Below are positions 22,095-42,294 of a stretch of DNA of 64,000 nucleotides, in pieces. The stretch spans positions 32,001 to 96,000 of the forward strand of contig JBFWJS010000001.1 of the NCBI GenBank assembly GCA_050253075.1, in the 5' to 3' direction. Below the pieces are notes generated by a model. It was not told where the DNA came from. It saw only the letters and a program-made list of their open reading frames with translations, and searched no databases. Position 1 is the stretch's first letter, and each line of letters starts with the position of its first letter. Source of the stretch: Deferribacterales bacterium (GTDB taxonomy: Bacteria; Chrysiogenota; Deferribacteres; Deferribacterales; Geovibrionaceae). The position numbers and the translations under genes are program-made.

Positions 22095-22433
22095 ATGAGC
22101 TCACTCCCGCCATGCCCGAAATGCAACTGCGAATACACATACGAAGACAGAGGACTGTTCGTCTGCCCCGAATGCGCACACGAATGGACACAGACAGAGC
22201 AGCAGGCCGCCGATGAAGCAGGCGTCATAAAAGATGCGAACGGAAACGTACTCGCAGACGGAGACACCATCACCGTCATAAAAGACTTGAAGGTGAAGGG
22301 CACATCTCTCGTGGTGAAAGTAGGTACAAAGGTGAAGAACATCCGCCTTGTGGACGGAGACCACGACATAGACTGCAAGATAGACGGCATCGGCGCAATG
22401 AAGCTGAAGTCCGAATTCGTTAAAAAGTCTTAA
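22095..22433 (+). CDS. yjdM: Zinc-ribbon protein YjdM (PhnA-like)
   Basis: LPPCPKC...[49 protein letters not shown]. Confidence 0.92.
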
Positions 22434-23137
22434 TCGCCGATATTACCGATAACGATAGTAGCCGGATTCTCTATACTGTTTTCGCTGATGAATTCGGCTA
22501 TGTTGCCGAGTGAACACTCAAAGAGGCGTTCCTCGTCCGTATCCATCTTTTCCCCGATGAGAACCTTTACGGATGGCTCCATTCCGTTTTCTATCAGCTT
22601 TTTGGCTATCTTCGATGCGTTCTTCACGCCCATGTATATCACGATGGTCAGGCCGAGCGCTGCCATGGCCTGCCAGTTATAGGTTTCTGTTATCTCGCCG
22701 TTTTTCGGATGCCCTGTGATGAAGACCACGCCCGATGCGGAGCGTCTGTCTGTGAGAGCAGAGCGCATCTTCGCCGAGAGTGTCGCAGCGGATGTCACGC
22801 CGGGGACAATGCTCACCTGTGCGCCCATCTCCTCTGCTGCCTCTATCTCTTCTATCGATCTGGCAAAGACAGTGCTGTCGCCCCCTTTCAGTCTGGCGAC
22901 TATCTTATCCTCACCCAGATATTTTTTTATAAGTACGTTTATCTCGTCCTGACGGATGCAGTGTTTGTATGGTGTTTTGCCCACCTGCACCATCTCTTTA
23001 CCATCGGCAAATTTTAATGTATCAGGATGTAAAAGCCTGTCATACAAAACTATATCTGCACGTTTCAGTTCATTTATACCTTTAAGTGTTATCGACTCGG
23101 GTCCGAGCCCCGCACCGATTATTACCAGTTCTTTCAT
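22430..23137 (-). CDS. cobA: Uroporphyrinogen-III C-methyltransferase
   Basis: [45 protein letters not shown]. Confidence 0.85.
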
Positions 23138-23925
23138 CTCTTCCTCTTTGCAAACTCTGCGAAAATTCTATTAAGTTCAAGCACCTTATCAAAGGACACG
23201 CTGTTAGCCCGTGAGAACTCCTTCTCGTCCACCATCAGATATTCAGAGTCCATAGCTTTGAACACTGCTCTGGTCTCGGGCGGTTCGGGGTTCTTATTCA
23301 TAGGCCCCACCTGATAGATATATATATCAGGGTTCTTCTCCACAGCGGCCTCCATGGAGTACCTCACTATCTTGTTTTTGCTCTCTGCGATGTTCTGCCC
23401 GCCCGCTTTCCTTATGATGTCTGTGACGATGCTGTTCTGCCCCGCCACTGAAAAAGGAAGCTGCATCACCTCGTAAAGCACCGTCGGCGTTGCCTCGGGC
23501 ACCTGTATGTTTTCTATCTTGCTTCTCAGACTGCTGTTCAGCGCCTCTGCCTCGGCACGTTTGCCCATCAGAAACCCCAGCTTTGTTATCTCGTCCAGTA
23601 TTTCATCCAGAGTGATCGGATTATACTCCGCCACAGGTACCCCTACCTGCTTCATCATCTCCTCTGTGAAGAATCTGTTCGAGGGTATTATTATCAGGTC
23701 AGGCGAGAGAGACATTATCAGCTCCATGTTCGGTCTGATATGGCTCCCGACCTTCTCCGCATTGGGGAATTCGTCGACGCTCTTCGTCTTTCCCACTATC
23801 TGCGCATCGCACCCCAGCTTAGACATTATGTCCGCAGCAGCAGGAGCGAGCAATATAACCCTTTCAGCCGCAAAGGCATTAAAGGTAAAAATTAAAATGA
23901 CCGCCGCTAGCACCCACCTTAACAT
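23134..23925 (-). CDS. ABC transporter periplasmic binding protein, BtuF/Fe-siderophore class
   Basis: Signal peptide (AFA), VGSHIRPNMELIMSLSPDLII, DIIRKAGGQN; start overlaps upstream ATPase by 47 nt. Confidence 0.85.
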   Translation of the reverse strand: MLRWVLAAVILIFTFNAFAAERVILLAPAAADIMSKLGCDAQIVGKTKSVDEFPNAEKVGSHIRPNMELIMSLSPDLIIIPSNRFFTEEMMKQVGVPVAEYNPITLDEILDEITKLGFLMGKRAEAEALNSSLRSKIENIQVPEATPTVLYEVMQLPFSVAGQNSIVTDIIRKAGGQNIAESKNKIVRYSMEAAVEKNPDIYIYQVGPMNKNPEPPETRAVFKAMDSEYLMVDEKEFSRANSVSFDKVLELNRIFAEFAKRKR

Positions 23926-24586
23926 CAAACACCTCTGATATGATACGTGCCGTCACATTCTCCCTTTTCAGGTCGTACAGCACCTTACCGTCTTTCATAA
24001 ATATCAGCCTGTCGAAGAACTCCACCGCCAGATTCACATCATGGATGGATGTCACCACAGTCTTTTCATTCGCCGTCATCAGCTCCAGCATGGCCAGGCT
24101 GTGACGTATATCCAGCATAGAGACAGGCTCGTCGAAAAACTGAACCGGCGTCCCCTGATTTATCACTCTGGCGAGCATAGCACGCCTCTTTTCACCGCCG
24201 GACAGCTCGTTGAAAGGTCTGTCCTTCAGGTGATGCATATCCGCCATCTTCAGGCTGGTGCGTGTGGTCTCCTCCACATCCTCACCGCCGTCTACCCTGC
24301 CGAAGCGCACGACCTCGTAAACGGTGAACGGAAATGTCACCTCGGGCATCTGAGGCAGGAGAGCGAACATCCTCGCACGTTCGGGGTATGTCATGCTCTT
24401 CATCGGCTTGTCCATATACTTCACGTCTGCCTTGCCCAGAACGCCTGTCATCAGGTGCATCAGGGTGCTTTTCCCCGATCCGTTCTCGCCCAGCAGTGCG
24501 ACCTTTTCCCCACGCCCTATCTCAAAGGCATCTACGGAGAGGTGAAAATCGCCCCTTTTGAAGTTTATCGCCCCCGTCTTTATCAT
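23879..24586 (-). CDS. ABC importer ATPase, BtuD/FepC class
   Basis: GENGSGKS, LSGGEKRR, DEPVSMLD, SIHDVNLA; ATGA overlap gives start 24586. Confidence 0.88.
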   Translation of the reverse strand: MIKTGAINFKRGDFHLSVDAFEIGRGEKVALLGENGSGKSTLMHLMTGVLGKADVKYMDKPMKSMTYPERARMFALLPQMPEVTFPFTVYEVVRFGRVDGGEDVEETTRTSLKMADMHHLKDRPFNELSGGEKRRAMLARVINQGTPVQFFDEPVSMLDIRHSLAMLELMTANEKTVVTSIHDVNLAVEFFDRLIFMKDGKVLYDLKRENVTARIISEVFDVKVGASGGHFNFYL

Positions 24587-25536
24587 GCCCACACCTGCGC
24601 AGAGCGTTTCTTCAGCATGTATAGGAAGAAGAAGCCGCCGAGTATCGCCGTGATGATCCCCACGGGGAGCTCTGTACCGCCGGGAATGATGCTCCGTGCC
24701 ACAGCGTCGGACACCACCATCAAAAGCCCGCCGAACACAGCGGAAAAGTATATGTTCACCCGCATATCAGATCCAAAGAAGCTCCGTGCTATATGCGGGA
24801 CTATCAATCCTACGAAACCTATCAGCCCGCTGAAGCTGACAGCCACAGCCACCAGCAGCGTAGACAGCACAAAAGCCGCCATCCGCTCTGCCTTAACATT
24901 CACGCCCGATGTCTCTGCGGAGTATTCATCCATAGCCAGCAGATTCAGCCTGTTTGCTCGGATGTGGAAATATGCATAAGCCACCACGAGAACCGCCAGC
25001 CCCGAAGATATCTTCTGCCAGCTGACGATGAAGAAACCGCCCATCAGCCAGAAGACTATCGACGAGAGAGACTCCTCGAAGTAGAACTTTGTAAAACCTA
25101 TAACGGACGATGCCACGATATTCAGCACCACCCCCGCCAGTATCATCGTAACGGGGCTTATCACACGCCCCTTAGACGAAGCCAGCTTATAAACACCCAA
25201 AAGCCCCGCCAAGCCCGTAATAAGAGCAAAAGGCGAAACCAGCACCACGGGAAGCCCGAGGGCAATGGCGAGCACAGCACCCAGGGCAGCGGACGAAGCC
25301 GCACCCGTCGTAAAACTGTCCGCCAGCGGATTTTTCAGCACCAGCTGATAAACCGACCCGCTCACGCCGAGCATACCGCCTATCAAAGCGGCGAATATCA
25401 CCCGAGGCAGACGTATGGTCCAGAATATGCTGCTCTGGGCATCCGTCATGTGAAAGATGTTTATATCCGCAGCCCCTGTTACGGCACCTGCGCCGACGGC
25501 TATGAGGAGCAGTACGGCTGAAACTATCTTCATCAT
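24583..25536 (-). CDS. ABC importer permease, BtuC/FecCD class
   Basis: IRLPRV, KNPLAD, WLMG, GLIGFVGLIVPH, ELPVGIITAILGG; ATGA overlap gives start 25536. Confidence 0.9.
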   Translation of the reverse strand: MMKIVSAVLLLIAVGAGAVTGAADINIFHMTDAQSSIFWTIRLPRVIFAALIGGMLGVSGSVYQLVLKNPLADSFTTGAASSAALGAVLAIALGLPVVLVSPFALITGLAGLLGVYKLASSKGRVISPVTMILAGVVLNIVASSVIGFTKFYFEESLSSIVFWLMGGFFIVSWQKISSGLAVLVVAYAYFHIRANRLNLLAMDEYSAETSGVNVKAERMAAFVLSTLLVAVAVSFSGLIGFVGLIVPHIARSFFGSDMRVNIYFSAVFGGLLMVVSDAVARSIIPGGTELPVGIITAILGGFFFLYMLKKRSAQVWA

Positions 25537-26270
25537 GCCTCTACCCTGCTGACCACCCGATAAGCGTATGCAAAAAGCACTGCGAATATCAGCACCAGTA
25601 TCCCCACGTTTGTCCAGACATTCAGCTTTCCGCCGAGGAGCGAATACCTTATCAGCTTTGTGCTGTATGTCAGAGGGAATGCTTTTGCTATCCACTGTAC
25701 TATCACGGGCATCTTATCCACGGGATAAAACGTGCCCGACAGGAACACCATCGGTGTTATGACAAATGTATTCACGGCGAACTGGTCGCCATGATTCTTT
25801 ACCATCAGGGCTACGATGAGCCCCAGAATGGAGAATATGAAAAGGTGCAGGAACATGCTGAGGAAAAAGAGCGGAGTTATGCTCAGCTTCACCCCGATGA
25901 AGAGGCCGTAAACGGCGACTATCATCACGGGTATAAAGCCTCTGGTGACACCATAGAGCATCTCGCCCACGACAATCTCCCACCTTGCGATAGGTGCGAG
26001 GAGGTATTCGTCGAACACCTTGAAGTAAAAGCGCGAGATGTTTATCTCCGTGGATATGCCGTAGCTCTGGTTCATACTGCTCATGGCTATCAGACCGGGG
26101 ATGAGGAATGAGAGGTATCCCACTCCGTCCACATCGGAAAAGCGTCCGACGCCAAATCCGAAAGCGAGCAGAAACAGAAGCGGCGATATGGACGAAGACA
26201 TAAGTATCTTCCACCGTCTGCTCCACAGCACAAGGAATTCTCTGTAATATATCCCTTTCACACCGTTCAA
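25533..26270 (-). CDS. ABC-2 type exporter permease (NodJ/DrrB-like)
   Basis: YLSFLIPGLIAM, EYLLAPI, PMVFLSGTFYPVDKMP, PLTY. Confidence 0.88.
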   Translation of the reverse strand: MNGVKGIYYREFLVLWSRRWKILMSSSISPLLFLLAFGFGVGRFSDVDGVGYLSFLIPGLIAMSSMNQSYGISTEINISRFYFKVFDEYLLAPIARWEIVVGEMLYGVTRGFIPVMIVAVYGLFIGVKLSITPLFFLSMFLHLFIFSILGLIVALMVKNHGDQFAVNTFVITPMVFLSGTFYPVDKMPVIVQWIAKAFPLTYSTKLIRYSLLGGKLNVWTNVGILVLIFAVLFAYAYRVVSRVEA

Positions 26271-27115
26271 ACGTCTATCCTCCTGCCTGTTATCGACAGA
26301 TACACATCCTCAAGGTTCGTTTCTCTCAGCTTTGCCGTCTCTTCTATCTCGCCCAGTCTTTTCAGTGCTTCCTCTCTGGATGTGAAGAACTCCGTCTCTG
26401 TCACGTCGTTCTTTAAAATATCCAGTGCGAAGGAGCCTATCTCTTTCTTAAGCGACTGAGCCGTCCCCTCAGCGACGATCTTTGCCCTGTCGATGACTAT
26501 AACATTGTCGGAGAGCATCTCCGCCTCTTCGATATAGTGCGTTGTCAGGAAGACCGTGCAGTTCTTATTCACTTTTATATTCCGTATGAAGTCCCATATG
26601 GAGCGCCTGACAGATGCATCGAGCCCCACTGTCGGTTCGTCCAGATACAGAATGCCGGGCTCGTGGAGGAGCGCTCTGGCTATTATCAGCCTGCGCTTCA
26701 TACCACCCGAAAGCTTTCCGGCGGGTTTGTTCCTGTGTCCGCCGAGCCCTGCGAATTCCAATGATTCTTCTATTCTTTTTTCCAGATATGACCTCTCCAT
26801 ACCGAAGAGCTTCCCGTGTACTTTCAGATTCTGATACACGCTGAGGTCTCGGTCGACATTGTTATGCTGAGGCACAACGCCGATCATCCTCTTCAGGTCA
26901 TCCCTTTTGGATGTGAAGAGTTCTCCACGGTAGCGTATCTCGCCCGATGTCGGCTGGAGCAGATCCGTCAGCATGTTCACCGTGGTGGTTTTCCCCGCCC
27001 CGTTAGGGCCGAGGAACGCAAGGATACTCCCCGCATCCACGCCGAAGCTGATGTCGTCCACTGCTGCTGTTCCGCCGAATTTTTTTGTCAGGTTTGATAC
27101 TTCTATCTCTCTCAC
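26267..27115 (-). CDS. ABC-2 exporter ATPase (NodI/DrrA-like)
   Basis: GPNGAGKTT, LSGGMKRRL, LDEPTVGLD, LTTHYIEEAE, NLEDVYLSITGR. Confidence 0.9.
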   Translation of the reverse strand: MREIEVSNLTKKFGGTAAVDDISFGVDAGSILAFLGPNGAGKTTTVNMLTDLLQPTSGEIRYRGELFTSKRDDLKRMIGVVPQHNNVDRDLSVYQNLKVHGKLFGMERSYLEKRIEESLEFAGLGGHRNKPAGKLSGGMKRRLIIARALLHEPGILYLDEPTVGLDASVRRSIWDFIRNIKVNKNCTVFLTTHYIEEAEMLSDNVIVIDRAKIVAEGTAQSLKKEIGSFALDILKNDVTETEFFTSREEALKRLGEIEETAKLRETNLEDVYLSITGRRIDV

Positions 27116-28074
27116 TTTAAGGTTATGCCCGCTTTAGCGGCAGCCTCCTTTATGTGATGTATGAATATCTGCCTAACGGCAGGTTTATCTCCGAGTCCTT
27201 CGAGCACAGGCTTAACGTCATAGCCCGCTTTGCCGAGCACAACTTTCCACGAGTCGTCCTCGTCACCAGCCATGTCGTTGTTTGCGTGGTCGCCCGCTAC
27301 TATCATCAGCGGTTTTATAAGCACCTTTTTGTTTCCGTATACTGCGAGCTTGTCCATCACGACATCGATATCGGGCAGTCCTTCCACAAGCCCGACAGCC
27401 ACAGGCACGTCATACATCCTGTTCATCACTATCTCCAGTTCATAGTATACACCCTGAGCCATGTGTTCGTTACCGTGACCCATATATACGAGAACTCTCC
27501 CCTCTTCCTTCGCAGCTTTAACATCGTCTGCGAGAGCCTTTGCGAGGGTCTCTACGTATTCCGTGTGCTCTATCGTCCCCGTGAGCGGTTTGCCCAGTGC
27601 GAGAGCGTTAAAAGGAGAGAACTTCGCCTTAAATGTGCGTATGGACTGAAGCCCTCGTACATAAGACATAAGGTCGTGGAATTCCTCGCCGTTTGCCACA
27701 TGTGTGGACTGGACGACGATATCTCTATAGCCTTCATTCTGGAGGTCGCCTATGACCCCGAGTATATTCTTAACTGTATAAAGCTCCGCAGGTACATTCG
27801 GATGCTCTTTCTTATATTCAGCGTCCCCTGCTCTTTTGTTCCATATCTTTCTGATTATGTTTGAAGTGAAGGCGAGCCTTACTTCTGTTTCCGGAAAGGC
27901 TTTTTCCGCATCCTCTTTGATGGCAAGGATGGAGTGAAGTGTCTGCTCATAGGTAGTACCGAAAGCAGTGATAACTATTGCTGTTTTGTCGCCCATTTTA
28001 AAATCCTCTGATGCATGGCCCACCCCTGTCAAAAGGAGTACTAATACCAATACGAATGACGAAAATCTCATCAT
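27112..28074 (-). CDS. cbiK: Sirohydrochlorin cobaltochelatase CbiK with N-terminal signal peptide (periplasmic type)
   Basis: AFGTT, AFTSNIIR, MGHG and PLMIVAGDHANNDM His motifs; N-terminus MMRFSSFVLVLVLLLTGVGHA. Confidence 0.9.
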   Translation of the reverse strand: MMRFSSFVLVLVLLLTGVGHASEDFKMGDKTAIVITAFGTTYEQTLHSILAIKEDAEKAFPETEVRLAFTSNIIRKIWNKRAGDAEYKKEHPNVPAELYTVKNILGVIGDLQNEGYRDIVVQSTHVANGEEFHDLMSYVRGLQSIRTFKAKFSPFNALALGKPLTGTIEHTEYVETLAKALADDVKAAKEEGRVLVYMGHGNEHMAQGVYYELEIVMNRMYDVPVAVGLVEGLPDIDVVMDKLAVYGNKKVLIKPLMIVAGDHANNDMAGDEDDSWKVVLGKAGYDVKPVLEGLGDKPAVRQIFIHHIKEAAAKAGITLK

Positions 28075-28149
28075 TTCCTCCTATTAAATTGTTGGGTGAA
28101 CTTATAAAGAGTTGTATAGAACAGGAACCTCTATCCTCGTAAAGTATAT

Positions 28150-28325
28150 CAGCAGATCAGATATCCTGACTTCCGGCTTAGTATAGCAGCTTGCCTACTC
28201 CTGCGCCTTCCCATTTAATTGCGGCAGAATGCCTCAAATAGTGGCTGTTGCAGTTTCGTTCCGGTTACAGTAGCGGGACTGTTTTGGATTTTCACCAAAT
28301 TCCCTGAATTTGCCTACACCCTTCA
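28150..28325 (-). ncRNA. Cobalamin riboswitch
   Basis: Minus strand reads ggtg...agggaa-tttggtgaaaatccaaaacagtcccgctactgtaa...gccact...gggaaggcg...aagtcaggatatctg; lies upstream of cbiK. Confidence 0.95.
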
Positions 28326-28373
28326 TGTATTTCACCTCAAAATGCAACAGCAGTCAACATCAAAAAAGATAAC

Positions 28374-28410: not shown

Positions 28411-29385
28411 ATGAGAAAGGGATTTACAACGGGCACCGCAGCATCAGCCGCGGCAAAGGCTCACGCAGTATACATCCAGACAGGCACAGCGCCCGAAAGC
28501 GTGGACATAATGCTCCCCTCGGGGGACGAGCTGACCATACCCGTGCACCTCTGCGGTGAAGACGGCGCATGCATCATAAAAGACGCAGGGGACGACCCCG
28601 ACATCACACACGGGGCAGAGATATGGGCCTTCGTAAACCCTGACGGTTCAGGCGTTATAAAAGTTACAGGCGGGAAAGGCATCGGCACAGTGACAAAGGC
28701 AGGGCTGCAGGTCGGCATAGGATCACCCGCCATAAACCCCGTGCCCATGCAGATGATAAAGTCGAGCGTCGCACAGACGGGGCTGACATCATGCACCGTC
28801 ACCATATCCGTGCCAAAGGGCGAAGAGCTCGCAAAGGAAACATTCAACAGCCGTATCGGCATAGTCGGAGGCATCTCCATCATAGGAACCACGGGGATAG
28901 TCGAGCCGATGAGCATAGAGGCTCTCACCGCTACGATAGCATGTGAGATAGACGTACAGGCCGAAAACGGCGCAGAGCATATATACCTTGTCCCCGGCAA
29001 AATAGGCGAAAAGCACCTGCACAGACTCATCCCCGATGCTCACGGCGTCATCATGAGCAACTACGCAGGATTCGCCATAGAACACGCACTTAAAAAGGGG
29101 ATAAAAAGCATCACCCTTGCAGGACATCCCGGGAAACTTGCCAAAATTGCAATGGGCTTCTATAATACCCACTCGAAACACTCTCCGATGGCTCAGGACT
29201 ACATAGCCCGCTTATTAGAGCTGAAGGGAGAGTTCAACACCGTAGAGGAGATATGCGCCATAGCGCAGATGGACGCCGTAGCCGAGGCTATAGGTGCGAA
29301 AATACTCGCAGACCATCCGCTTGAGCACGTATCTGTGATATTATTTGATATGGGCGGTGAGTTAAAGGGGAGAAGAGATGGCTGA
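28411..29385 (+). CDS. cbiD: Cobalt-precorrin-5B C1-methyltransferase
   Basis: RKGFTTGTAASAA, KDAGDDPDITHG, AINPVP, GGISIIGTTGIVEP, GHPGKLAK. Confidence 0.95.
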   Translation: MRKGFTTGTAASAAAKAHAVYIQTGTAPESVDIMLPSGDELTIPVHLCGEDGACIIKDAGDDPDITHGAEIWAFVNPDGSGVIKVTGGKGIGTVTKAGLQVGIGSPAINPVPMQMIKSSVAQTGLTSCTVTISVPKGEELAKETFNSRIGIVGGISIIGTTGIVEPMSIEALTATIACEIDVQAENGAEHIYLVPGKIGEKHLHRLIPDAHGVIMSNYAGFAIEHALKKGIKSITLAGHPGKLAKIAMGFYNTHSKHSPMAQDYIARLLELKGEFNTVEEICAIAQMDAVAEAIGAKILADHPLEHVSVILFDMGGELKGRRDG

Positions 29386-29980
29386 TATTAAGATTGTATC
29401 TATGGGGCCCGGATGTATAAACCACCTCACATGGGAGGCGGTACAGGCGCTTTACTGCGCAGATGTCATGATAGGCGCAAAGAAATATACCGAGATATAC
29501 CCCGAGTATGGAATACTCGTACCCGAACCGCTGATATCGGGAACGATAGAGCTGATTAAGGAAAATATCGATAAAAAGATAGCCGTGCTGGTGACAGGCG
29601 ATGCGGGCTTTTACAGCCTGGGCAAAGCCGTGATAAAAGAGTTCGGCTGTAACGGCGTGACGGTAATCCCGGGCGTCAGCATTGTGCAGTTTGCCTTTGC
29701 ACAGCTGTGCGAACCGTGGGAGGATGCGCAGTTCGTATCGCTCCACGGGCGTGACGAAGAGCTCCCCGAGCTGACGGATAAGTTCATGGTGCTTTGCGAT
29801 AATAAAAACACTGCAAACGTCATAACACATAAGCTGATGCACATGATAAGCACCCATGACATATACGCCATGGAAGACCTGAGCATGAACGGCGAAAAGA
29901 TAACACACATAAAAACAGAAGAAGATATAAACAGCCTGAACGGCAGCTCGCTGGGCGTTGTGATAGGCATACGGAGATAA
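29378..29980 (+). CDS. cbiE: Cobalt-precorrin-7 C5-methyltransferase (stand-alone, no CbiT fusion)
   Basis: MGPG, TGDAGFYSLG, IPGVSIVQFAFA, PWED, VSLHGR. Confidence 0.9.
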   Translation: MADIKIVSMGPGCINHLTWEAVQALYCADVMIGAKKYTEIYPEYGILVPEPLISGTIELIKENIDKKIAVLVTGDAGFYSLGKAVIKEFGCNGVTVIPGVSIVQFAFAQLCEPWEDAQFVSLHGRDEELPELTDKFMVLCDNKNTANVITHKLMHMISTHDIYAMEDLSMNGEKITHIKTEEDINSLNGSSLGVVIGIRR

Positions 29981-29981
29981 G

Positions 29982-30737
29982 ATGAGCGATGTCTATTTCA
30001 TCGGGGCAGGCCCCGGTGACCCTGAGCTGATTACGCTGAAAGCGGTGAACCGCATAAAAGAGTGCAGATGCGTCATCTACGCAGGGAGCCTCGTTTCAAA
30101 AGATATACTGACACACTGCCGTGAGGATGCAGAGATACACGACTCCGCATCTATGGATCTCGGCGGGATAATCGAAACCATAAAAAATACCCACGCAAAA
30201 GGCGAGAAAACAGCCAGACTGCACACGGGCGACCCGAGTCTCTACGGTGCAATAAAGGAACAGATGATAGAGCTGGATAAGCTGGGCATCACATACGAAG
30301 TGATCCCGGGGATAACGGCACTGTTTGCCGCTGCCGCTGCTCTTCAGACAGAGCTGACAGCCCCCGAGCAGTCGCAGACAGTCATCATCAGCCGTATCGA
30401 AGGGCGTACTCCCGTCCCCGACGACGAGCGCATAGAGCTCCTTTCCAAGCACGGCGGGACATTCGCTTTTTATCTGTCTGTAAACAGACTGGGCGACGTC
30501 CTCGACAGATTCAGGGCAAACGGATGGGGAGAGGACACCCCCATGGCGATAGTCTATAGAGCGAGCTGGGAGGATGAAAAGATACTCCGAGGCACATTCG
30601 CAGACATAGAGCAGAAATTCGCCGTAGCAGACATAAACAAACACGCACTGATCATCATAGGCAAGGCACTCTCCGACACTCTGGAGAAATACAGCAAGCT
30701 GTACGACAAGGATTTCTCCCATGACTACCGCAAATGA
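29982..30737 (+). CDS. cbiF: Cobalt-precorrin-4 C11-methyltransferase (CobM)
   Basis: VYFIGAGPGDPELIT, YAGSLV, RLHTGDPSLYGAIKEQ, SKLYDKDFSH. Confidence 0.95.
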   Translation: MSDVYFIGAGPGDPELITLKAVNRIKECRCVIYAGSLVSKDILTHCREDAEIHDSASMDLGGIIETIKNTHAKGEKTARLHTGDPSLYGAIKEQMIELDKLGITYEVIPGITALFAAAAALQTELTAPEQSQTVIISRIEGRTPVPDDERIELLSKHGGTFAFYLSVNRLGDVLDRFRANGWGEDTPMAIVYRASWEDEKILRGTFADIEQKFAVADINKHALIIIGKALSDTLEKYSKLYDKDFSHDYRK

Positions 30738-31494
30738 TACCGCTGTCATAGCCGTCACCGAAAAGGGCTTAGCCCTTGCAAAGTCGGTGAATGCGGAGAT
30801 ACCCTCAGACCTCTATTACCCCGAAAAGCTCGGCGGGAACTATGCATCCGTCGCAGACTGCTTCATCGAACTGTTTAATAACTATAAAAATATCGTTGCA
30901 ATCATGGCACAGGGGATAGTCACCCGCATGATAGCACCCCACATAAAAAGTAAATACACAGACCCCGCCATAGTCACCTGCGACGAGGTGGGCAGGTTCG
31001 CCATAAGCACCCTGTCGGGGCACGAAGGGGGCGCAAATGTCCTCGCACATATGGTGGCTAGCATCACAGGGGCAGACCCTGTCATCACCACCGCCACAGA
31101 GGCAAACCGCACATGCATACTCGGCATCGGATGCCGTAAGGACACTCCGAAGGATGAGATAATCGAAGCAGTGCGTAACGGATGCGCCGATGCAGGGATA
31201 ACCCTCGAAGACATCCGCCTGATGGCATCTGCATGGGTAAAAAAGAATGAACAGGGGATACTGGAAGCATCAAAAGAGCTCGGTCTCTACCTCCGCTTCC
31301 TCCCCGAGAGATACTATAAAAACGAAAACTATAACTTCACCCCGCAGGAAGCGCCCATGAAGCACTTCGGCATACCAGCAGTGGCAGAACCCTCTGCGAT
31401 ACTGGCGGGGGTGAACCCGAGGCTGATACTGCAAAGGCAGACCTACGGGAACGTGACCATAGCAATAGCGAAAGAGGAATTGGCAAATGACTGA
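30721..31494 (+). CDS. cbiG: Cobalt-precorrin-5A hydrolase (short form)
   Basis: MAQGIVTRMIAP, DPAIV, LSGHEGGAN, VITTATE, GIGCRK, VAEPSA. Confidence 0.9.
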   Translation: MTTANDTAVIAVTEKGLALAKSVNAEIPSDLYYPEKLGGNYASVADCFIELFNNYKNIVAIMAQGIVTRMIAPHIKSKYTDPAIVTCDEVGRFAISTLSGHEGGANVLAHMVASITGADPVITTATEANRTCILGIGCRKDTPKDEIIEAVRNGCADAGITLEDIRLMASAWVKKNEQGILEASKELGLYLRFLPERYYKNENYNFTPQEAPMKHFGIPAVAEPSAILAGVNPRLILQRQTYGNVTIAIAKEELAND

Positions 31495-32230
31495 TAAAGG
31501 CAGGCTTTACGTCGTGGGCAACGGCCCGGGCGATATATCGCTCACCAGCCCGAAGGCGAAGGAAGCCATAGAAACAGCAGACATCATATGCGGATACGAG
31601 CCCTATGTGGAGCAGATAAAGGCTCTCATCCCCGACGGAACAGAGATATTCACCAACGGAATGACAGGCGAGATGGAGCGTGTGCAAAAGGCTGTGGACG
31701 AATGCGCAAAAGGGCGCATAGTCGCACTTGTATGCGGAGGCGACGCATCCCTTTATTCGATGGCATCGCTGGCATACGAGCTGACAAACGATGTGGACAC
31801 CGTGGAGATAATCCCCGGGATAACATCCGCACTATCAGCCTCTGCAAAGCTCGGTGCGCCCGTATCGGACGATCTGGTGCTGATATCCATGAGTGACCTG
31901 CTCACCCCGTGGGAGCTTATCAAAAAGCGCATAGATGCCATAAACATAGGCGATTTCGTCTGTGCGGTGTATAACCCACGCAGTAAGAAGCGCACGGCAC
32001 AGCTTCCGTATCTGGTCGAGACTTTCATCCGTGAAAGGGGCGACCTCCCATGCGGATGGGTCAAGAACTGCGACAGGGAAACAGAGGAAACATGCGTCAC
32101 AACCCTCACAAAGCTGAATTTCGAAGATATTGATATGAAAACCGTGCTGATAATCGGCAGCAGGAAAACATTCATAAAAGACGGAAAGCTCGTCAGCCCG
32201 AGGGGCTACACGGATAAATACGGCGTATGA
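31487..32230 (+). CDS. cbiH: Cobalt-precorrin-3 C17-methyltransferase (CobJ)
   Basis: LYVVGNGPG, IPGITS, ISMSDLLTPW, YNPRSKKR, IDMKT, PRGY. Confidence 0.93.
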   Translation: MTDKGRLYVVGNGPGDISLTSPKAKEAIETADIICGYEPYVEQIKALIPDGTEIFTNGMTGEMERVQKAVDECAKGRIVALVCGGDASLYSMASLAYELTNDVDTVEIIPGITSALSASAKLGAPVSDDLVLISMSDLLTPWELIKKRIDAINIGDFVCAVYNPRSKKRTAQLPYLVETFIRERGDLPCGWVKNCDRETEETCVTTLTKLNFEDIDMKTVLIIGSRKTFIKDGKLVSPRGYTDKYGV

Positions 32231-32907
32231 TACTGATACTGGGCGGAACATCCACGACACACAAGATAATAAGCCAGCTAAACACCGAAGACTTCATAAT
32301 ATCCGTCGCCACGGAATACGGCCACGATGAATTCTCCAAAAGGTATCCGAGGAAGATAACTCTGAAAAGGTTCACTCCGTCCGACCTCGCAAAATTCATA
32401 CGCTTCAACGATATAACACAGGTGATAGACACCACCCACCCCCACGCAAAGGAGATCAGCAAGATAGCCGTCGAGGCATGTAACCTCACGGGGATAGAAT
32501 ACGTTAATAAAGTACGTGAGACGGAGGATGTGGAGTATGACCGTCTATACGCCTTCGACACATACGAAGATGCCGTCAGCCATATCAAAAATAAGGATTA
32601 CAAGTCTGTTCTTATAACCACAGGCAGTAACAACATAGATAAATACGCCCCCGTGGCAGATGTATCATACGCAAGGGTGCTCGCATTCGAAAAATCCATA
32701 AAGGCATGCACCGATGCAGGGTTTCATTATTCAAAGATAATAGCCATGCAGGGGCCGTTCAGCGAGCAGTTCAACATGTCGCTCATGCGAGAGCTGAAGA
32801 CAGACTGCCTCGTCACGAAAAACAGCGGAGAGGGCTCGGGCTATGCCGAGAAGATATCCGCCTGCGAGAAGCTGGGGATAGACGTTATCCTTGTGCAGCC
32901 AGAGTGA
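32227..32907 (+). CDS. cbiJ: Cobalt-precorrin-6A reductase (CobK)
   Basis: ILILGGT, SVATEYG, IDTTHPHA, AMQGPFS, VTKNSG. Confidence 0.92.
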   Translation: MILILGGTSTTHKIISQLNTEDFIISVATEYGHDEFSKRYPRKITLKRFTPSDLAKFIRFNDITQVIDTTHPHAKEISKIAVEACNLTGIEYVNKVRETEDVEYDRLYAFDTYEDAVSHIKNKDYKSVLITTGSNNIDKYAPVADVSYARVLAFEKSIKACTDAGFHYSKIIAMQGPFSEQFNMSLMRELKTDCLVTKNSGEGSGYAEKISACEKLGIDVILVQPE

Positions 32908-33502
32908 GCAGACCGTTTATAACAGTCGCCGCACACGGGCTCCCGCCCTTTGTCCCCCTGTTCGTCACATGTGGGATGTCGCTCTCGGAGAGCTCTTCCT
33001 TCGACTCCGCAGCCTTCACAAAGCCAACGGGAAGCCCCGCTATGAATGAAGGATTCGCTTTTCCCTCACGTTTCAGTTCCAGCAGTTTCAGCAGTGCCGT
33101 CGGAGCATTGCCTATGGCGTATACCGCATCGGGATATTTCTCCGCTGCGTAGACCATAGCCACTTCGCTTCGGGTCTGGTTCGTTTCCTTCGCTATGCGC
33201 ATCACTTCAGGGTCGTTTATGAAGCAGAGCACCTCTACGCCCGTCTTTTCCAGATAGCGTTTCGTTATGCCCGCCGTCACCATCGTCACATCCGTTATGA
33301 CAGGTTTCCCCGCCTTTAACGCCTGCACACCCGCATCGACTCCTCCGACAGAACATATTGCTAATTCAGCAAATTCGGGATCACCTGTCGTGTGCACCAG
33401 CTTCTTCACGACGAGCCTTTCCCCTTCGGAAAATTTTGAAAGGTCGCAAAGTGATTCTATAATATCAAAGCTGTCGCTCTCTATTTTCAGTCCTTTATCC
33501 AT
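32885..33502 (-). CDS. cbiC: Precorrin-8X methylmutase (CobH)
   Basis: IESDSFDII, VHTTGD, DVTMV, TRS, AIGNAPTAL, PVGFV, GTKGGS. Confidence 0.95.
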   Translation of the reverse strand: MDKGLKIESDSFDIIESLCDLSKFSEGERLVVKKLVHTTGDPEFAELAICSVGGVDAGVQALKAGKPVITDVTMVTAGITKRYLEKTGVEVLCFINDPEVMRIAKETNQTRSEVAMVYAAEKYPDAVYAIGNAPTALLKLLELKREGKANPSFIAGLPVGFVKAAESKEELSESDIPHVTNRGTKGGSPCAATVINGLLTLAAQG

Positions 33503-33506
33503 CTTT

Positions 33507-34784
33507 TCACCCCAGTATCATATCCAGAATCGACGGCTCGCTCATAAAGTGAAAGTGGGCGTATCCGCCGTATACATTCCCCTTCATGAATCCGTCCGAT
33601 GTCTGTTTCTTATTCGTCAGCTTCTCAAGGGTAAAGTGGAAATCCTCTTTCACGTTTTCCAGCTTTGAATAATGAAATTCATGCCCTATGAAGCCTTCGC
33701 ATTTATCGTTAAACGCCCGAACGTATCCGAGTGCCTGTCTTTTATCCGTCATACGGCATTCCGCATCGAAGATGCCCGCCATCTCATAAAACCCACCGTC
33801 GGCGTGTATCCCCTTCGTCAGGGTCATCATACCGCCGCACTCTGCTATCATGGGCTTTTTAAAGTCTCTCACAGATTCCAGAAACCGTTTACACTGCGAA
33901 AGCTCTTCGCCGTAAAGCTCAGGGTAGCCACCGCCCATATACACCATGTCGGCATCGTCCACAGCCTCGTCAGCAAGGGGCGAGAAGAATTTTATCTCAT
34001 ACCCACGCCTGCGGAGCTCGTGAAAGTTTGCCTCGTAATAGAAGTTAAACGCCTTATCATATGCGACACGGCACACCTTATCCGTCTGATACACGGGCAG
34101 TTCTGCCGTATCGACGGTGATGTCTATGTCCGACAGCCTGTTTATATCTATGTACTCTGCCGTGAGGTCGGCACATCTGTTGAAATACGCTTCGTCCGCC
34201 TCGAATGCCGTCTTTATCCCGAGGTGTCTCGAGCCTATCAGCTCCCCCTGCCTCGGCACACAGCCCAGAATGGGTATGTCCGTATGCATCCTCACCGCTT
34301 CGGTCAGCAGTTTTTCATGGTTGCCCGATGCGACATTATTCAGCACAACTCCCGCAATGGGCACATCAGCCATAGACTGAAAGCCTCTAAGAGTCGCCGC
34401 CACGGAATAAGATGTGGATGCACAGTTCAGCACCATCACCACGGGCAGTCCGCAGACCTTCGCCACATGGTGCGAGCTCCCGTAAAAGCCCTCGGGGCGT
34501 ATCCCGTCAAAAAGCCCCATGACGCCCTCGGCCACACATACATCGGCACCCGCAGCACCTATGGCAAATACCTCACGCACCTTATCCTCAGACAGCATGA
34601 CGGTGTCTAGGTTGTGCGCAGGACGCCCCGCTGCTTTTGAATGGTGGAGTGTGTCTATATAGTCAGGGCCGCTCTTAAACGGCGAGACGAGCTTCCCTCT
34701 GCGGGTCAGCTCTCGGATTATCCCTGTCGTTATCGTTGTTTTGCCTGAGCCGCTCTTATCTGCGGCTATCATGAAGCCTTTCAT
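33507..34784 (-). CDS. cbiA: Cobyrinate a,c-diamide synthase (CobB)
   Basis: SGSGKTT, FKSGPDYID, EGVMGLFDG, SRHLG, GGYPE, AECGG, GHEFHYS; ATGA overlap gives start 34784. Confidence 0.95.
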   Translation of the reverse strand: MKGFMIAADKSGSGKTTITTGIIRELTRRGKLVSPFKSGPDYIDTLHHSKAAGRPAHNLDTVMLSEDKVREVFAIGAAGADVCVAEGVMGLFDGIRPEGFYGSSHHVAKVCGLPVVMVLNCASTSYSVAATLRGFQSMADVPIAGVVLNNVASGNHEKLLTEAVRMHTDIPILGCVPRQGELIGSRHLGIKTAFEADEAYFNRCADLTAEYIDINRLSDIDITVDTAELPVYQTDKVCRVAYDKAFNFYYEANFHELRRRGYEIKFFSPLADEAVDDADMVYMGGGYPELYGEELSQCKRFLESVRDFKKPMIAECGGMMTLTKGIHADGGFYEMAGIFDAECRMTDKRQALGYVRAFNDKCEGFIGHEFHYSKLENVKEDFHFTLEKLTNKKQTSDGFMKGNVYGGYAHFHFMSEPSILDMILG

Positions 34785-35230
34785 TCCAGCCCGCCGTCCG
34801 CTATCCACTGTTCGAGCTTTTCACGTATCTTCTTCGACCTTGCAGGGTCTGCCCCGTCGGTGGATACGGATATCACCACATCATCCCGCACTATCGTCGC
34901 AGGCATGTGAAAGTCGCATGCGTCAGGGTCGTCGGCTATGTTTATCAGTGCCTGACCTTTGAAAAAGTCGTAGACCTCCTGATTCACCTCACGCTCGTTT
35001 GTCGCTATGAAGACATAGTCGAAGCTCTCCTGAGGGAAGTCCGTCGTCCACTTTATCACACCGAGAATTGCGAGGCTCTGAAGCTTATCAGTTACTTCGG
35101 GGGAGAGGACGGTTATCACGGGGTTCGCCTCCAGAAGCGACTGAACCTTTCGCTCTGCCACTGCGCCTCCGCCGACGAATAAAACTTTTTTTCCGTGCAT
35201 GCCCATCAAGAGCGGATATCTCTTTATCAC
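34781..35230 (-). CDS. Precorrin-2 dehydrogenase (SirC / CysG N-terminal-like, short)
   Basis: YPL, VGGGAVAERK, NIADDPDACDF, ISVSTDG. Confidence 0.85.
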   Translation of the reverse strand: MIKRYPLLMGMHGKKVLFVGGGAVAERKVQSLLEANPVITVLSPEVTDKLQSLAILGVIKWTTDFPQESFDYVFIATNEREVNQEVYDFFKGQALINIADDPDACDFHMPATIVRDDVVISVSTDGADPARSKKIREKLEQWIADGGLE

Positions 35231-36660
35231 AGCCCTGCCCCCTTTAATATCTTATCTATATCACAGTTTTCTTTTATCATCTTTGCCAGTGCGTTCAGCT
35301 GGCGCTCTTTTTCATCGATATAATCATCGGCATAGATATTTACGCCGTGCATGGCGAAGAGTTTTTCGGTGATTTTTCCGCTTTCGAATATACCGTGCAG
35401 ATATGTCCCCGTCACACGTCCGTCTGTTATCAGCACATCCTTTTCCGATGCGAGCTGTTCATATCCGCCTTTTATGTCTGTCACACCCATGTGCATCTCA
35501 TACCCGCAGACATTCAGCCCGCTGAGCAGACCGGCACCCTTGTATGACACATGCTCCAGCCTCTTTTCGCTCTTTATCACTGTCTCCATATCGAAAAGTC
35601 CGAGCCCTTCGATGTCGGCGATTTCCCCCTCTATGCCGTCAGGGTCAGCGACCCTTTTACCCAGCATCTGGAAGCCTCCGCATATGCCTGTCACGGGCTT
35701 TCCGCTTTTGAGTATCGCATCTGCGAAGCCTTTATCACGCAGGTATTTCATATCCGCCACGGTGCTCTTACTGCCGGGCAGTATGATGATGTCGCAGTCG
35801 TCCAGCTCGGACGGTCTCTCGACATACAGCAGGTTTATATTTTCATTCGCCTTCAGAGGGGCGAAGTCGGAGAAATTCGATATCTTCGGCAGGCGGATAA
35901 CGCCCACGGTTGGTTTATCAGTATATATTTTATCTGAGGAGATGTCCTGAGAGTCTTCCTCCTCCAGAGTATTGTATTGAAACGGGAGCACGCCGACCAC
36001 GGGCTTTGGCACATATTCGGCGAACATGTCTATCCCCGGCTGGAGCAGCGTGACGTCCCCACGGAATTTATTTATTATAAAGCCTTTTATCAGTTCACGG
36101 GTATCTTCGGGGACGAGGTCGTATGTACCCTTCATCCATGCGAATACTCCGCCCCTGTCTATGTCGCCTATGATGTAAACATCTGATTCGGCATACTTTG
36201 CCATCTGCATGTTTACTATGTCGGTCTTTTGCAGGTTTATCTCTGCCGGGCTCCCCGCACCCTCTATCACTATCAGGTCGTATTCCTCAGCCAGCGAATC
36301 ATACGCCTGTTTCACTATCTCAAAGTTTTCGAGGGAGAGCGTGTAATACTCTCTGGCTGAATATGTGCCGACCACACGCCCCATGCGGACGAGCTGTGAT
36401 GATGAATTACCCTGCGGTTTCAGCAGTATCGGATTCATCCGAACATCAGGGCGAACCCTCGCCGCCTCCGCCTGTAATATCTGCGCACGACCCATCTCGA
36501 GCCCGCTGTCCACCACGCCTGAATTCAGCGCCATATTCTGTGATTTGAAAGGGGCCACCTTTACCCCCATATCAGACAAAAGACGGCAGAAACCCGCTGT
36601 GACTATACTTTTACCCACACCCGAGCCTGTCCCCTGAAACATTATCGATGGAACTTTCAT
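35227..36660 (-). CDS. cbiP: Cobyric acid synthase (CobQ)
   Basis: QGTGSGVGKS, PFKSQNMALNS, MNPILLKP, EGAGSPAEINL, DIDRGG, GICGGFQMLG, GTYLHG. Confidence 0.96.
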   Translation of the reverse strand: MKVPSIMFQGTGSGVGKSIVTAGFCRLLSDMGVKVAPFKSQNMALNSGVVDSGLEMGRAQILQAEAARVRPDVRMNPILLKPQGNSSSQLVRMGRVVGTYSAREYYTLSLENFEIVKQAYDSLAEEYDLIVIEGAGSPAEINLQKTDIVNMQMAKYAESDVYIIGDIDRGGVFAWMKGTYDLVPEDTRELIKGFIINKFRGDVTLLQPGIDMFAEYVPKPVVGVLPFQYNTLEEEDSQDISSDKIYTDKPTVGVIRLPKISNFSDFAPLKANENINLLYVERPSELDDCDIIILPGSKSTVADMKYLRDKGFADAILKSGKPVTGICGGFQMLGKRVADPDGIEGEIADIEGLGLFDMETVIKSEKRLEHVSYKGAGLLSGLNVCGYEMHMGVTDIKGGYEQLASEKDVLITDGRVTGTYLHGIFESGKITEKLFAMHGVNIYADDYIDEKERQLNALAKMIKENCDIDKILKGAGL

Positions 36661-36752
36661 AAGCTGTTACCGCCTTTTATTGAAACACAATGTTATAAAA
36701 AAACTGGACACACCTCAAGATGTTTTCGTATATTGGCTAACCGAGGTTAGTT

Positions 36753-37436
36753 ATGAAGATATACGGAATAGGGCTCGGCCCTGGTGACCCTGAGCTGCTC
36801 ACGGTTAAAGCAGTGAAAACTCTCGAAAGCGCAGACATAGTCGTCGTCCCCCAGTCTGATAAAACAGGCAGGAGCATCGCAGGCGATATAGTGAAGCACT
36901 ATATCCCCGAGGGGAAGATATACTGGTATTATTTCCCCATGACAGGCATAAAGGCTGATCTGGACGAGCGTTACGACGACCTCGCAAACAAGATGGCGTG
37001 TATGCTGGGCGAGGGAAAGAAGGTCTGCTATGTCACCATAGGCGACACCCCCGTGTACAGCACATTCAACTACCTCAGAGACAGACTGATCGACGTGAAC
37101 ATACAGATGGAGATGATCCCAGGGATATCCGCATTCTCCGCAGGGGCGAATCAGGTCGCACTGCCGCTGTGTGAAAAGGGAGAGAACTTCTGTGTTATCG
37201 AGATGCCTCCGAGCAAAGACGAGCTGGCGGGTGTTCTGGAAGACTTCACCACTGTCGTGCTGATGAAGGTGCATAAGAAGCTGAACATACTGACCGAGTT
37301 CGTAGCGGAAAATCACCTGAGTGCCGCATATCTTTTCCACAGGGTAACTATGGAAGACGGCATCACATACGATCTCTTAAACGATGAAATAGACGAAAAG
37401 GCGGGATACCTCTCGACAGCTATTTTAAAAAGGTAA
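36753..37436 (+). CDS. cbiL: Precorrin-2/factor II C20-methyltransferase (CobI)
   Basis: YGIGLGPGDPELLTVKA, FPM, TIGDTPVYSTF, IPGISAF, VLMKV, YLST. Confidence 0.92.
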   Translation: MKIYGIGLGPGDPELLTVKAVKTLESADIVVVPQSDKTGRSIAGDIVKHYIPEGKIYWYYFPMTGIKADLDERYDDLANKMACMLGEGKKVCYVTIGDTPVYSTFNYLRDRLIDVNIQMEMIPGISAFSAGANQVALPLCEKGENFCVIEMPPSKDELAGVLEDFTTVVLMKVHKKLNILTEFVAENHLSAAYLFHRVTMEDGITYDLLNDEIDEKAGYLSTAILKR

Positions 37437-38073
37437 GGCTGTCTTTCAGGTCGGCTTCGTTGAAGACCTCAAGGCTGACCGTGAGGCTTTTATCCTTTGC
37501 AAACTGCATTATCTGCATGAGCATATCATCGGGGAAATATCTGACGGACTGATGATCTTTCCCATCATTCACCCCGTGCAGGTGAAACATCTTTATCCTT
37601 TCACCATACTCTGACAGCAGCTTTGAAATATCCTGTCCGTGCATCAGCATATGCCCCGCATCGAGGCAAATATCATCATCAGACAGAGCAAATGATGCGG
37701 TGTCAGACTCGCCGTTTTCAAGAGTCACGGACATATCCGTCTCAGACCTGAACCACTCCAGACCTCTGAAAAACTCATCCTCGGGCTGTATGTGAAATGT
37801 GTGGGTGTGTGCGCATAGCGGGCGGAGCACATCGGCAAATTTCGCCATGAATTCCCACTCTGACCGCTTCGTAAGGTCTCTGTCATACGGCATATGCACA
37901 TTGAAGCGCATCCCCGTATCCGCCAGTGCCCTCACCTCTTCCCCATCGGGGAAGTCGTATTCGGACAAACTGCACATGTATAAAAGCTCGACCTCGTCCA
38001 CCGTGCCTTTCAGATACCTGACATTCTCAATCCTCGAAGCAGGAATGATGAATGAAGGGCAGGAGACAAACAT
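37420..38073 (-). CDS. cbiR: TIM-barrel (AP endonuclease 2/xylose isomerase-like) protein, probable cobamide remodelling phosphodiesterase
   Basis: SFIIP...ENVRYL...VDEVEL, VHMP, LEN, CLDAGH, FHLHG...DH, SLEVF; coupled to cbiB. Confidence 0.7.
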   Translation of the reverse strand: MFVSCPSFIIPASRIENVRYLKGTVDEVELLYMCSLSEYDFPDGEEVRALADTGMRFNVHMPYDRDLTKRSEWEFMAKFADVLRPLCAHTHTFHIQPEDEFFRGLEWFRSETDMSVTLENGESDTASFALSDDDICLDAGHMLMHGQDISKLLSEYGERIKMFHLHGVNDGKDHQSVRYFPDDMLMQIMQFAKDKSLTVSLEVFNEADLKDSLTFLK

Positions 38074-39032: not shown

Positions 39033-39034
39033 AA

Positions 39035-41780: not shown

Positions 41781-41793
41781 TAAGATACTCCCT

Positions 41794-42294
41794 CTATTTT
41801 ACGCTGACGGGGATGCCGGATACCATCAGTATGACCTTATCCGAGATCTCAGCCAGCTGTCTGTTTATTTTTGATAATAGTTTTGCGTACAGGCGGGTAT
41901 CTTTATCCCACGGGATGATCCCCAGCCCCACCTCGTTTGTGACGAGTATGACAGGCTTGTCAGCCTTTGAGAGCTCACCTATGAGCTCGGCGAAATATTT
42001 ATCAGGATCTTTTTTATAATAGATCAGGTTGTTCACCCAGAAGGTGATGCAGTCGATTATCACCGCATCGGCATCTGCCCCGTGAAGGGCGTGCGCCAGC
42101 TCCAGCGGTTCTTCGACGGTGGCGTATGTCTCGTCACGCTCGGCCTTATGCGCTGTGATCTTCGCCTCCATCTCTGCATCTGTGGAGACTGCCGTGGCTA
42201 TATATGCCTTTCGGGGACTGCCTTTGGCAAGGGCGAGAGCGTGCAGAGTCTTGCCTGCTCCTGCGCCGCCGGTTATCATCGTGATATCAGACAC
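41794..42294 (-). CDS. cobU: Adenosylcobinamide kinase / phosphate guanylyltransferase
   Basis: ITGGAGAGKT, YIATA...DAEM, IDCITFWVNN, VTNEVGLGI, VSGIP. Confidence 0.92.
   Translation of the reverse strand: MSDITMITGGAGAGKTLHALALAKGSPRKAYIATAVSTDAEMEAKITAHKAERDETYATVEEPLELAHALHGADADAVIIDCITFWVNNLIYYKKDPDKYFAELIGELSKADKPVILVTNEVGLGIIPWDKDTRLYAKLLSKINRQLAEISDKVILMVSGIPVSVK

Follow-up and report, generated by a model that had tools for sequence, protein, structure and literature searches.

Sequence features of a riboswitch-controlled Deferribacterales operon that combines a signal-peptide CbiK with a likely second start, an ABC-2 transporter pair and a Btu-like importer

To our knowledge, work on Desulfovibrio vulgaris and Porphyromonas gingivalis brought up exported CbiK without settling what it does. 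D. vulgaris exports its CbiK(P) and encodes it in a cbiK-cbiL-btuCDF operon controlled by a B12 element (PMC545781), and an exported chelatase of the CbiK type beside an importer is also known from P. gingivalis (PMC13065792, PMC12094164, PMC4063343). Internal starts that remove a targeting signal have been described in other genes, namely for the long and short forms of Salmonella SseL, with OmpX and PagC as candidates (PMC13515050). Here we describe an operon in a 64,000-nt stretch of DNA (the window) from a Deferribacterales bacterium (GCA_050253075.1, contig JBFWJS010000001.1, positions 32,001 to 96,000 of the forward strand), in which a signal-peptide CbiK is encoded together with an ABC-2 ATPase and permease and a Btu-like importer. 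An exported CbiK beside an importer and signal-dropping internal starts in other genes are known already; new here is a conserved internal ATG with its own Shine-Dalgarno sequence (SD) just past the CbiK signal peptide. A literature search, with subscription papers and supplements outside its reach, returned no description of an internal start in cbiK or of an ABC-2 pair with cbiK.

The operon occupies the minus strand (22430-28338), where a cobalamin riboswitch is followed by seven genes (cbiK, ABC-2 ATPase, ABC-2 permease, BtuC-, BtuD- and BtuF-like genes, and cobA) that overlap at all six junctions. All parts listed in an earlier note on this DNA are thus present on that strand with every junction overlapping; its start for the importer permease, 25695, is replaced on start scores by 25536/25533 as the most likely. 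Coordinates are positions in the window; G000 denotes the source genome, other G numbers genomes, L numbers loci and C numbers contigs. The features are as follows.

28139-28338, minus strand: cobalamin riboswitch aptamer (Rfam RF00174, 71 bits, cut-off 31.5, E 1.7e-15), one of two in the genome
27112-28074, minus strand: full-length cbiK, encoding a predicted Sec signal peptide (PF06180, E 9e-71; PDB matches 2xvx/1qgo/9b86)
28012-28074, minus strand: predicted signal peptide, codons 1-21 of cbiK (from sequence and hydropathy; cleavage inferred after Ala21)
27994-28009, minus strand: internal SD (28009-28004, −5.8 kcal/mol) followed in frame by the ATG of codon 27 (27996), a likely second start
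27112-27996, minus strand: predicted 294-aa cytoplasmic CbiK form, its start aligned near the start of Salmonella CbiK
27475-27477, minus strand: His200, first catalytic His, MGHG motif (alignment, 44/44 orthologs)
27286-27288, minus strand: His263, second catalytic His, AGDH motif (alignment, 44/44 orthologs)
26267-27115, minus strand: ABC-2 ATPase, DrrA/NodI-like, below family cut-offs
25533-26270, minus strand: ABC-2 permease, six-helix exporter-type fold (PF01061; model pLDDT 93)
24583-25536, minus strand: BtuC-like importer permease (PF01032; best NCBIfam match BtuC, below cut-off)
23879-24592, minus strand: BtuD-like importer ATPase (family profile matches)
23134-23928, minus strand: BtuF-like periplasmic binding protein with invariant His63 (PF01497)
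22430-23137, minus strand: cobA, uroporphyrinogen III methyltransferase (NF004790 and TIGR01469 above cut-off), sole copy found

A promoter scan of the operon returned nothing beyond shuffled sequences (6 against 7.7) and a terminator search behind the riboswitch found none. A hairpin covering the first cbiK SD is predicted, yet it is not significant (z −1.6).

The CbiK of G000 matches the PF06180 domain with 238.7 bits (curated cut-off 26.2), and its best PDB match is D. vulgaris CbiK(P) (2xvx/2xvy/2xvz, E 8e-43); the cut-off of the NCBIfam equivalog NF047852 is missed (189 bits vs 400). CbiK has two catalytic histidines in its C-terminal lobe, H145 and H207 in Salmonella (PMC7689651). His200 and His263 align to the MGHG and AGDH motifs of the Salmonella enzyme, and both are invariant in all 44 aligned orthologs. 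CbiK is likely a class II cobaltochelatase, with insertion of cobalt into sirohydrochlorin as its predicted reaction. The N-terminus is basic and is followed by a hydrophobic run with a mean hydropathy of 3.8 over its best nine residues (signal peptides were assigned throughout by hydropathy and inspection), and the best first start lies at 28071 with an SD of −10.2 kcal/mol. In the alignment to 1qgo, query residue 30 corresponds to chain residue 2 of the cytoplasmic Salmonella CbiK. A signal-peptide CbiK with both catalytic histidines, as proposed earlier, is therefore confirmed by hydropathy, inspection and alignment. At the positions that we take to be those of the heme-binding His pair of CbiK(P), His was present in 4/44 and 0/44 orthologs, the first being His in G000.

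A second start within cbiK does not appear in the earlier note. Codon 27 is an in-frame ATG (27996) five codons beyond the inferred cleavage site, preceded by a purine run at a spacing of seven bases (−5.8 kcal/mol against the 16S end), in a stretch without a stable fold (z +0.2). By the alignment, the N-terminus of its product would roughly coincide with that of Salmonella CbiK. An internal SD and start were found in 19/19 main-clade orthologs from four families (SD −5.8 to −10.8), spelled through differing codons and frames. Of 17 Desulfuromonadales-type loci, with one truncated locus excluded, 13 have an internal start at −6 or stronger (three of them GTG), and the remainder comprise three weak starts and one ATG without an SD. 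As a background, among 287 genes of G000 to which a heuristic assigns a signal peptide, 12 have a value of −5 or stronger, and none of 61 BtuF rows has an ATG at −3 or stronger, although BtuF linkers are shorter. Among the 30 best-scoring loci of exported Desulfovibrionaceae CbiKs an internal start was found once by ATG and three times by any start; only 1/29 exported metagenome CbiKs has a nearby ATG (SD −4.1), and gammaproteobacteria have none at the −5 level (0/16; best −4.3). The observed internal SD is stronger than expected from synonymous recoding in 18/19 main-clade orthologs (p 0.04-0.23 each), and 15 hand-picked motif classes combined give p 0.007, a value on the optimistic side, as each gene entered with its best start. 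By these sequence comparisons, an in-frame start with its own SD past the signal peptide is kept beyond chance, and cbiK probably yields two proteins, an exported full-length form and a cytoplasmic form from the internal start. Two other signal-peptide genes of G000 were seen to have internal ATGs: a candidate two-start gene on C4 (plus strand from ~272061; ATG at codon 20, SD −8.6 kcal/mol, MsrA-like motif by inspection), and a gene on C8 (minus strand, ~8.4 kb from the right contig end; ATG at codon 22, SD −9.5 kcal/mol).

The inventory of chelatases gives this start a context. G000 is 99.89% complete, and profile searches for further chelatases, a check that the earlier note had named, recovered one CbiK match, CbiX only as a sub-cut-off match inside cbiK, and 0 matches for CobN and the CysG dimerization domain; with the CysG N-terminal model included, a short SirC was the one further match beside the operon's cbiK. 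CbiK is the sole class I/II cobaltochelatase found in G000, and the searches also agree with the earlier statement that no CbiX, CobN or cbiMNQO lies within the cob cluster. In CysG, one half of the chelatase site is contributed by a helical domain (PMC7018833); the sole SirC of G000 (149 aa, 34781-35230) appears to lack most of that domain, because it ends 130 residues past the GxG motif, compared with 278-298 residues in gammaproteobacterial CysG-N proteins. A hemE-hemH pair serves heme, and a search for a siroheme reductase in G000 found none. All 16 gammaproteobacteria without an internal start have another cytoplasmic chelatase candidate (15 CysG-N-type, by analogy with cobalt insertion by CysG (PMC7018833), one CbiX, and three also a second CbiK), and most Desulfovibrionaceae genomes have two CbiKs. 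The internal start has likely been retained in the absence of another chelatase and given up in its presence. Two candidates were rejected: Ferrimonas as a lineage without a cytoplasmic chelatase, which is ruled out by a CysG-N-type protein of 280-300 residues, and the long CobA tail of Ferrimonas/Vibrio as a chelatase, which resembles a degenerate HemD (score 0.86, a lead only) with no PDB match. Separately, in three gammaproteobacteria a divergent CbiK-like gene with no signal stands between cbiG and cbiH (L196:7872-8699, L197:12549-13259, L198:10945-11793), and the motifs around both catalytic histidines are altered.

The premise of the earlier note that the cell has no cytoplasmic chelatase is thus not upheld, as the conserved internal start likely supplies one and lineages without it have another cytoplasmic candidate. 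This bears on the strict version of a shuttle, in which all cobalt insertion is periplasmic and B12 synthesis cannot proceed without the shuttle. Such a version would suit the single chelatase gene of G000, as well as five divergent genomes and four Desulfuromonadales-type loci with neither a clear internal start nor another chelatase. However, the SD and start in 19/19 close orthologs, the additional candidates in 16/16 gammaproteobacteria, and the separate exported and cytoplasmic cbiK genes that flank an ABC-2 pair in the metagenome locus L326 make it highly unlikely. An obligatory shuttle loses its footing because the cytoplasmic CbiK form would remove the paradox; periplasmic chelation is likely not obligatory, and the shuttle would be a possible accessory route.

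The converse possibility is that the cytoplasmic form alone is of consequence, with a signal peptide that is a relic and transporters that belong to the B12 regulon but are otherwise unrelated. Loss of the signal does happen, as signal-less CbiKs occur within signal-bearing clades (G003/G004; G038/G039), with that of G003/G004 falling in a well-supported cassette clade (in a quick tree with long branches). However, the SD of the first start is the stronger of the two (−10.2), it is the internal start and not the signal that gammaproteobacteria lost, and no permease match was found where the signal was lost, so that we give this explanation very little probability.

To place the ABC-2 pair, 63 genomes of the order Deferribacterales were surveyed, of which 35 have a CbiK match. 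The 29 strong matches were read and comprise 24 with a signal peptide and five without, while the six weak ones are CbiX. The permease occurs in 26/63 genomes, namely the 24 with a signal-peptide CbiK plus G013 and G044. Among the 39 CbiD-positive genomes, it is present in 24/24 with a signal-peptide CbiK and 0/15 others; this comparison counts for less than its numbers suggest, as 11 of the 15 belong to one genus and kin are not independent, so that only a few independent events stand behind it. In 17/24 genomes the pair is no more than ~4 kb away from cbiK, and in the other seven (one genus) the ABC-2 and importer genes stay joined as a unit away from cbiK-cobA. The nearest named relatives of the permease are Deferribacterales records. 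It has at least 955 homologs, and outside the order the best 80 of 366 loci were examined. The gene order cbiK-ATPase-permease-btuC-btuD-btuF recurs in Desulfuromonadales, Vibrio, Photobacterium, Ferrimonas, Agarivorans, Shewanella and a few Desulfovibrionaceae. Among these best 80, loci with permease identity of 47% or more (n = 58) have cbiK in 43 and btuC in 54 cases, and the more distant ones (n = 22) in 3 and 12. Of 64 non-Deferribacterales genomes picked by their permease, the 50 that were searched contain CbiK in 49 and CbiD in 44 cases, and riboswitches were found at 4/7 and 7/8 of the loci scanned. The ABC-2 pair nearly always implies CbiK, but an exported CbiK does not imply the pair. 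Its conservation with a signal-peptide CbiK, which the earlier note had named as a check, is upheld within the order (24/24 vs 0/15) and, with this importer, across three phyla.

Several loci from this survey have arrangements of their own. A metagenome operon (L326:315-9500) strings together importer genes, an ABC-2 pair, cbiD-cbiE and two cbiK genes, one of them exported and the other cytoplasmic. The ABC-2 pair stands without cob genes in G044 (L056:5864-10199) and G013 (L055:9620-11205), and in G044 its ATPase is split by a two-gene insertion that by inspection resembles a restriction-modification pair. At L115:8587-9050 cbiK and the transporter genes run in opposite directions, driven by two cobalamin riboswitches that lie back to back.

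The cassette contains a PF01061 permease with a coupled ATPase. The permease model (pLDDT 93) has six helices in an exporter-type fold with only short loops, and a fold search matched TarG, KpsM (TM ~0.7 for both), ABCG/H and, more weakly, NosY (E ~1e-3, TM 0.5-0.6). The pair falls below every NCBIfam cut-off, including those of NodI, NodJ, DrrA and DrrB, and a sequence search of the PDB with the permease gave no match. The permease is, from its sequence relations, a distinct conserved subfamily tied to cbiK. In CcmAB and NosFY, ATP is used to release a cofactor from a periplasmic partner. By analogy, the pair may export nothing and instead drive the release of a metallated tetrapyrrole from CbiK to the binding protein; the NosY match among exporter-fold proteins would agree with this, as would the translational coupling of the pair between cbiK and btuC and its staying with the importer when the cassette splits. 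We consider such a release factor quite unlikely, however, as the NosY matches are weaker than those to KpsM and TarG, the permease loops are short, and the source of the tetrapyrrole is left unexplained.

The importer consists of a FecCD permease, an ATPase and a BtuF-type binding protein, all of which miss their NCBIfam cut-offs (BtuC 206/461, BtuD 92/281, BtuF 46/234 bits). The binding protein has a fold of the BtuF/heme/siderophore type, within which the fold search lacks the power to separate B12, heme and siderophore binders, and its family profile aligns end to end to BtuF alone. The invariant His63 occupies the position of the residue altered in the W66 structures of E. coli BtuF, where V. 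cholerae BtuF also has a His; it could ligate the cobalt of a ring without a lower ligand. No TonB receptor was found in the cassette or under either B12 riboswitch of G000, whose two TonB receptors each have their own importer. A receptor near the cluster in one genus was rejected as a cassette member, as it belongs to its own exbB-exbD-tonB unit and scores best as heme-type, below cut-off. The receptor-less cassette argues against plain scavenging of B12 from outside.

These transporters could also act with two CbiK forms but no loop between them. The importer would then salvage corrinoids (cobinamide, foreign cobamides), the ABC-2 pair would remove surplus tetrapyrrole intermediates or product, and the exported CbiK would be an accessory cobalt- or tetrapyrrole-binding protein. 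The BtuF-type profile and fold, the presence of cbiR above cut-off in the cluster, the annotation of the Desulfovibrio cbiK-cbiL-btuCDF genes as B12 transport (PMC545781), and the separation of the ABC-2 and importer unit from cbiK-cobA in the seven genomes of one genus all point this way. On the other hand, the missing BtuB-type receptor in the cassette or under either G000 riboswitch and the missed BtuC, BtuD and BtuF cut-offs do not favor salvage, a detoxifying exporter would be expected in producers with cytoplasmic CbiK or CbiX as well (yet 0/15 have it), and the catalytic histidines are invariant even where CbiK looks export-only. We regard this alternative as unlikely.

Cobalt entry provides a further line of evidence. 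Five of the 15 non-cassette producers were checked for cbiM, and all five (G003, G004 and G049 by map, G045 and G054 by coordinates) have it inside the cob cluster and have no permease match. In 80 metagenome loci (10 CbiKs unclear, four reclassed by hand), cbiM/Q lies beside 0/29 exported vs 17/41 cytoplasmic CbiKs, and btuC beside 17/29 vs 5/41. Among the gammaproteobacterial cassette genomes, 11/16 have CbiD and no CbiM match. Alternation of the cassette with cbiM in cob clusters is thus supported. As to cobalt transporters, which the earlier note had left for checking, no cbiMNQO lies in the cob cluster; a CbiM/NikM-family energy-coupling factor (ECF) operon is present on another contig, behind a nikR-like gene (named by inspection) and without a B12 riboswitch. 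This operon fits nickel uptake, with cobalt also possible, because G019 of the same genus carries it without cbiK or cbiD. G101 combines an unlinked ABC-2 pair with a cytoplasmic cbiK-cbiMNQO unit.

Taken together, we tentatively read the locus, with a probability somewhat short of even, as a six-gene B12-riboswitch cassette with a two-form cbiK and transporters for cobalt capture. The ABC-2 pair would send sirohydrochlorin to the periplasm, where the exported CbiK would insert cobalt present there, and the cobalt-tetrapyrrole would come back through the BtuCDF-like importer. The cytoplasmic CbiK form would perform ordinary chelation when cobalt enters otherwise. The periplasmic loop would be an add-on standing in for CbiMNQO. 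A role of the exported form and the transporters in cobalt acquisition is slightly favored, because the catalytic histidines are invariant and the exporter, importer and cobA or cbiL are linked under B12 repression. Sirohydrochlorin as the exporter substrate, and with it the full shuttle, is possible but doubtful. Somewhat less probable still is the complete scheme in which a cell uses its own B12 precursor as a cobaltophore, with a pump, loading by CbiK, a His-ligating binding protein, return of Co-sirohydrochlorin straight to CbiL, and one gene with two starts for both chelatases. Of the export-metallation-reimport shuttle proposed in the earlier note, what stands is that no second class I/II chelatase was found in the genome, the conserved cassette and its alternation with cbiM; its necessity does not, as an internal start is likely and most exported CbiKs have no ABC-2 pair.

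A number of observations weigh against our reading. Exported CbiK with an importer is common without this ABC-2 pair: the permease is present in only 9/121 Desulfovibrionaceae genomes, CbiK in 115/121, and the permease lies near 1/80 metagenome CbiK loci, where many contigs are short. Conversely, G013 and G044 have the permease but no CbiK, and in G101 and 12/22 distant loci it has no linkage to cob genes. The internal SD of G000 is modest and not above synonymous recoding (p 0.54). In the divergent signal-peptide CbiKs of G033-35 and G061-62 the linker contains no start, their candidate starts lying only inside the hydrophobic run or the first strand, and no other chelatase was found in these genomes (64-96% complete). 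Nor was a clear internal start or another chelatase found for four Desulfuromonadales-type loci, and G092 has CbiX and an internal GTG start together. The SirC of G000 retains the loop Asp, and that of Desulfuromonadales (~205 residues past GxG) keeps a helical tail and could chelate. The cbiR gene in the cluster points to cobamide salvage, which needs an importer. Finally, most cassette genomes also have a CbiM/NikM-family gene, that of G063 lying ~8 kb from cbiD, and the search for cobalt transporters covered the CbiM/NikM family only.

The two starts in one gene would explain how a genome with only a signal-bearing chelatase runs a cytoplasmic pathway, and the tightly linked exporter-type pump is named here as the candidate for the missing substrate path to a periplasmic chelatase. 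Deltaproteobacteria with cbiK and no known cobalt transporter have been noted as a gap (PMC545781). If the loop is true, it would be a new kind of cobalt uptake that fills this gap, and also that of the 11 marine gammaproteobacteria with CbiD and no CbiM match.

Around the operon the anaerobic cobalamin pathway is encoded, with cbiL (36753-37436, plus strand) within the cluster.

28411-32907, plus strand: divergent cbiD-E-F-G-H-J operon (context)
32885-42294, mixed strands: cbiC, cbiA, short sirC (34781-35230), cbiP, cbiL (36753-37436, plus strand), cbiR, cbiB, cobD, cobS, cobT and cobU (context)

No cbiT was found in the cob cluster (28411-42294), and no CbiT scored above cut-off in G000. A second cbiE-like gene, 35% identical, stands alone on C2:80729-81340. 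The cobamide-remodeling phosphodiesterase CbiR (37420-38076, minus strand) scores above cut-off and is also present in the clusters of several relatives. The second cobalamin riboswitch of G000 (C2:98138-100505, minus strand) precedes a 706-aa anaerobic ribonucleotide-reductase-like gene, and a B12 riboswitch ahead of ribonucleotide reductase is a pattern described previously (PMC545781). In Ferrimonas/Vibrio clusters (L194:23-1552, L200:5134-6789, L202:11446-13149), CbiG has a C-terminal thioredoxin-like 2Fe-2S domain (weak Pfam match), and no cbiJ match was found in them.

Compared with known systems, the cassette shares with D. vulgaris CbiK(P) the signal peptide, the Btu-like importer and the B12 riboswitch. 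However, Desulfovibrionaceae mostly have a second CbiK gene, whereas G000 has one CbiK match, and the internal start (3/30) and ABC-2 permease (9/121), both features of the G000 cassette, are rare among them. The ihtABCDE locus of P. gingivalis likewise has an exported CbiK-fold chelatase, IhtB/FetB, adjoining an ABC importer (PMC12094164, PMC13065792), but IhtB/FetB is an outer-membrane lipoprotein with a TonB receptor and is tied to heme, iron or Mn-protoporphyrin; in the cassette here the signal is of the Sec type and no receptor is present, and an ABC-2 pair and cobA go together with a de novo cobalt pathway. As in SseL-type proteoforms, an in-frame internal start would drop the signal, and for cbiK conservation and paralog complementarity suggest this. 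CbiMNQO, the cobalt ECF importer, occupies the same place in the cob clusters of cassette-less relatives, but it imports the ion directly and has no sequence relation to the cassette. The ABC-2 systems NodIJ, DrrAB, YadGH, KpsMT, TarGH and NosFY share Pfam and fold class with the cassette pair, which in contrast falls below every NCBIfam cut-off, has no PDB sequence match and forms its own cbiK-tied subfamily. The BtuCDF B12 importer shares its component types with the cassette, which differs in scoring below the BtuCDF cut-offs and in having no co-regulated BtuB receptor.

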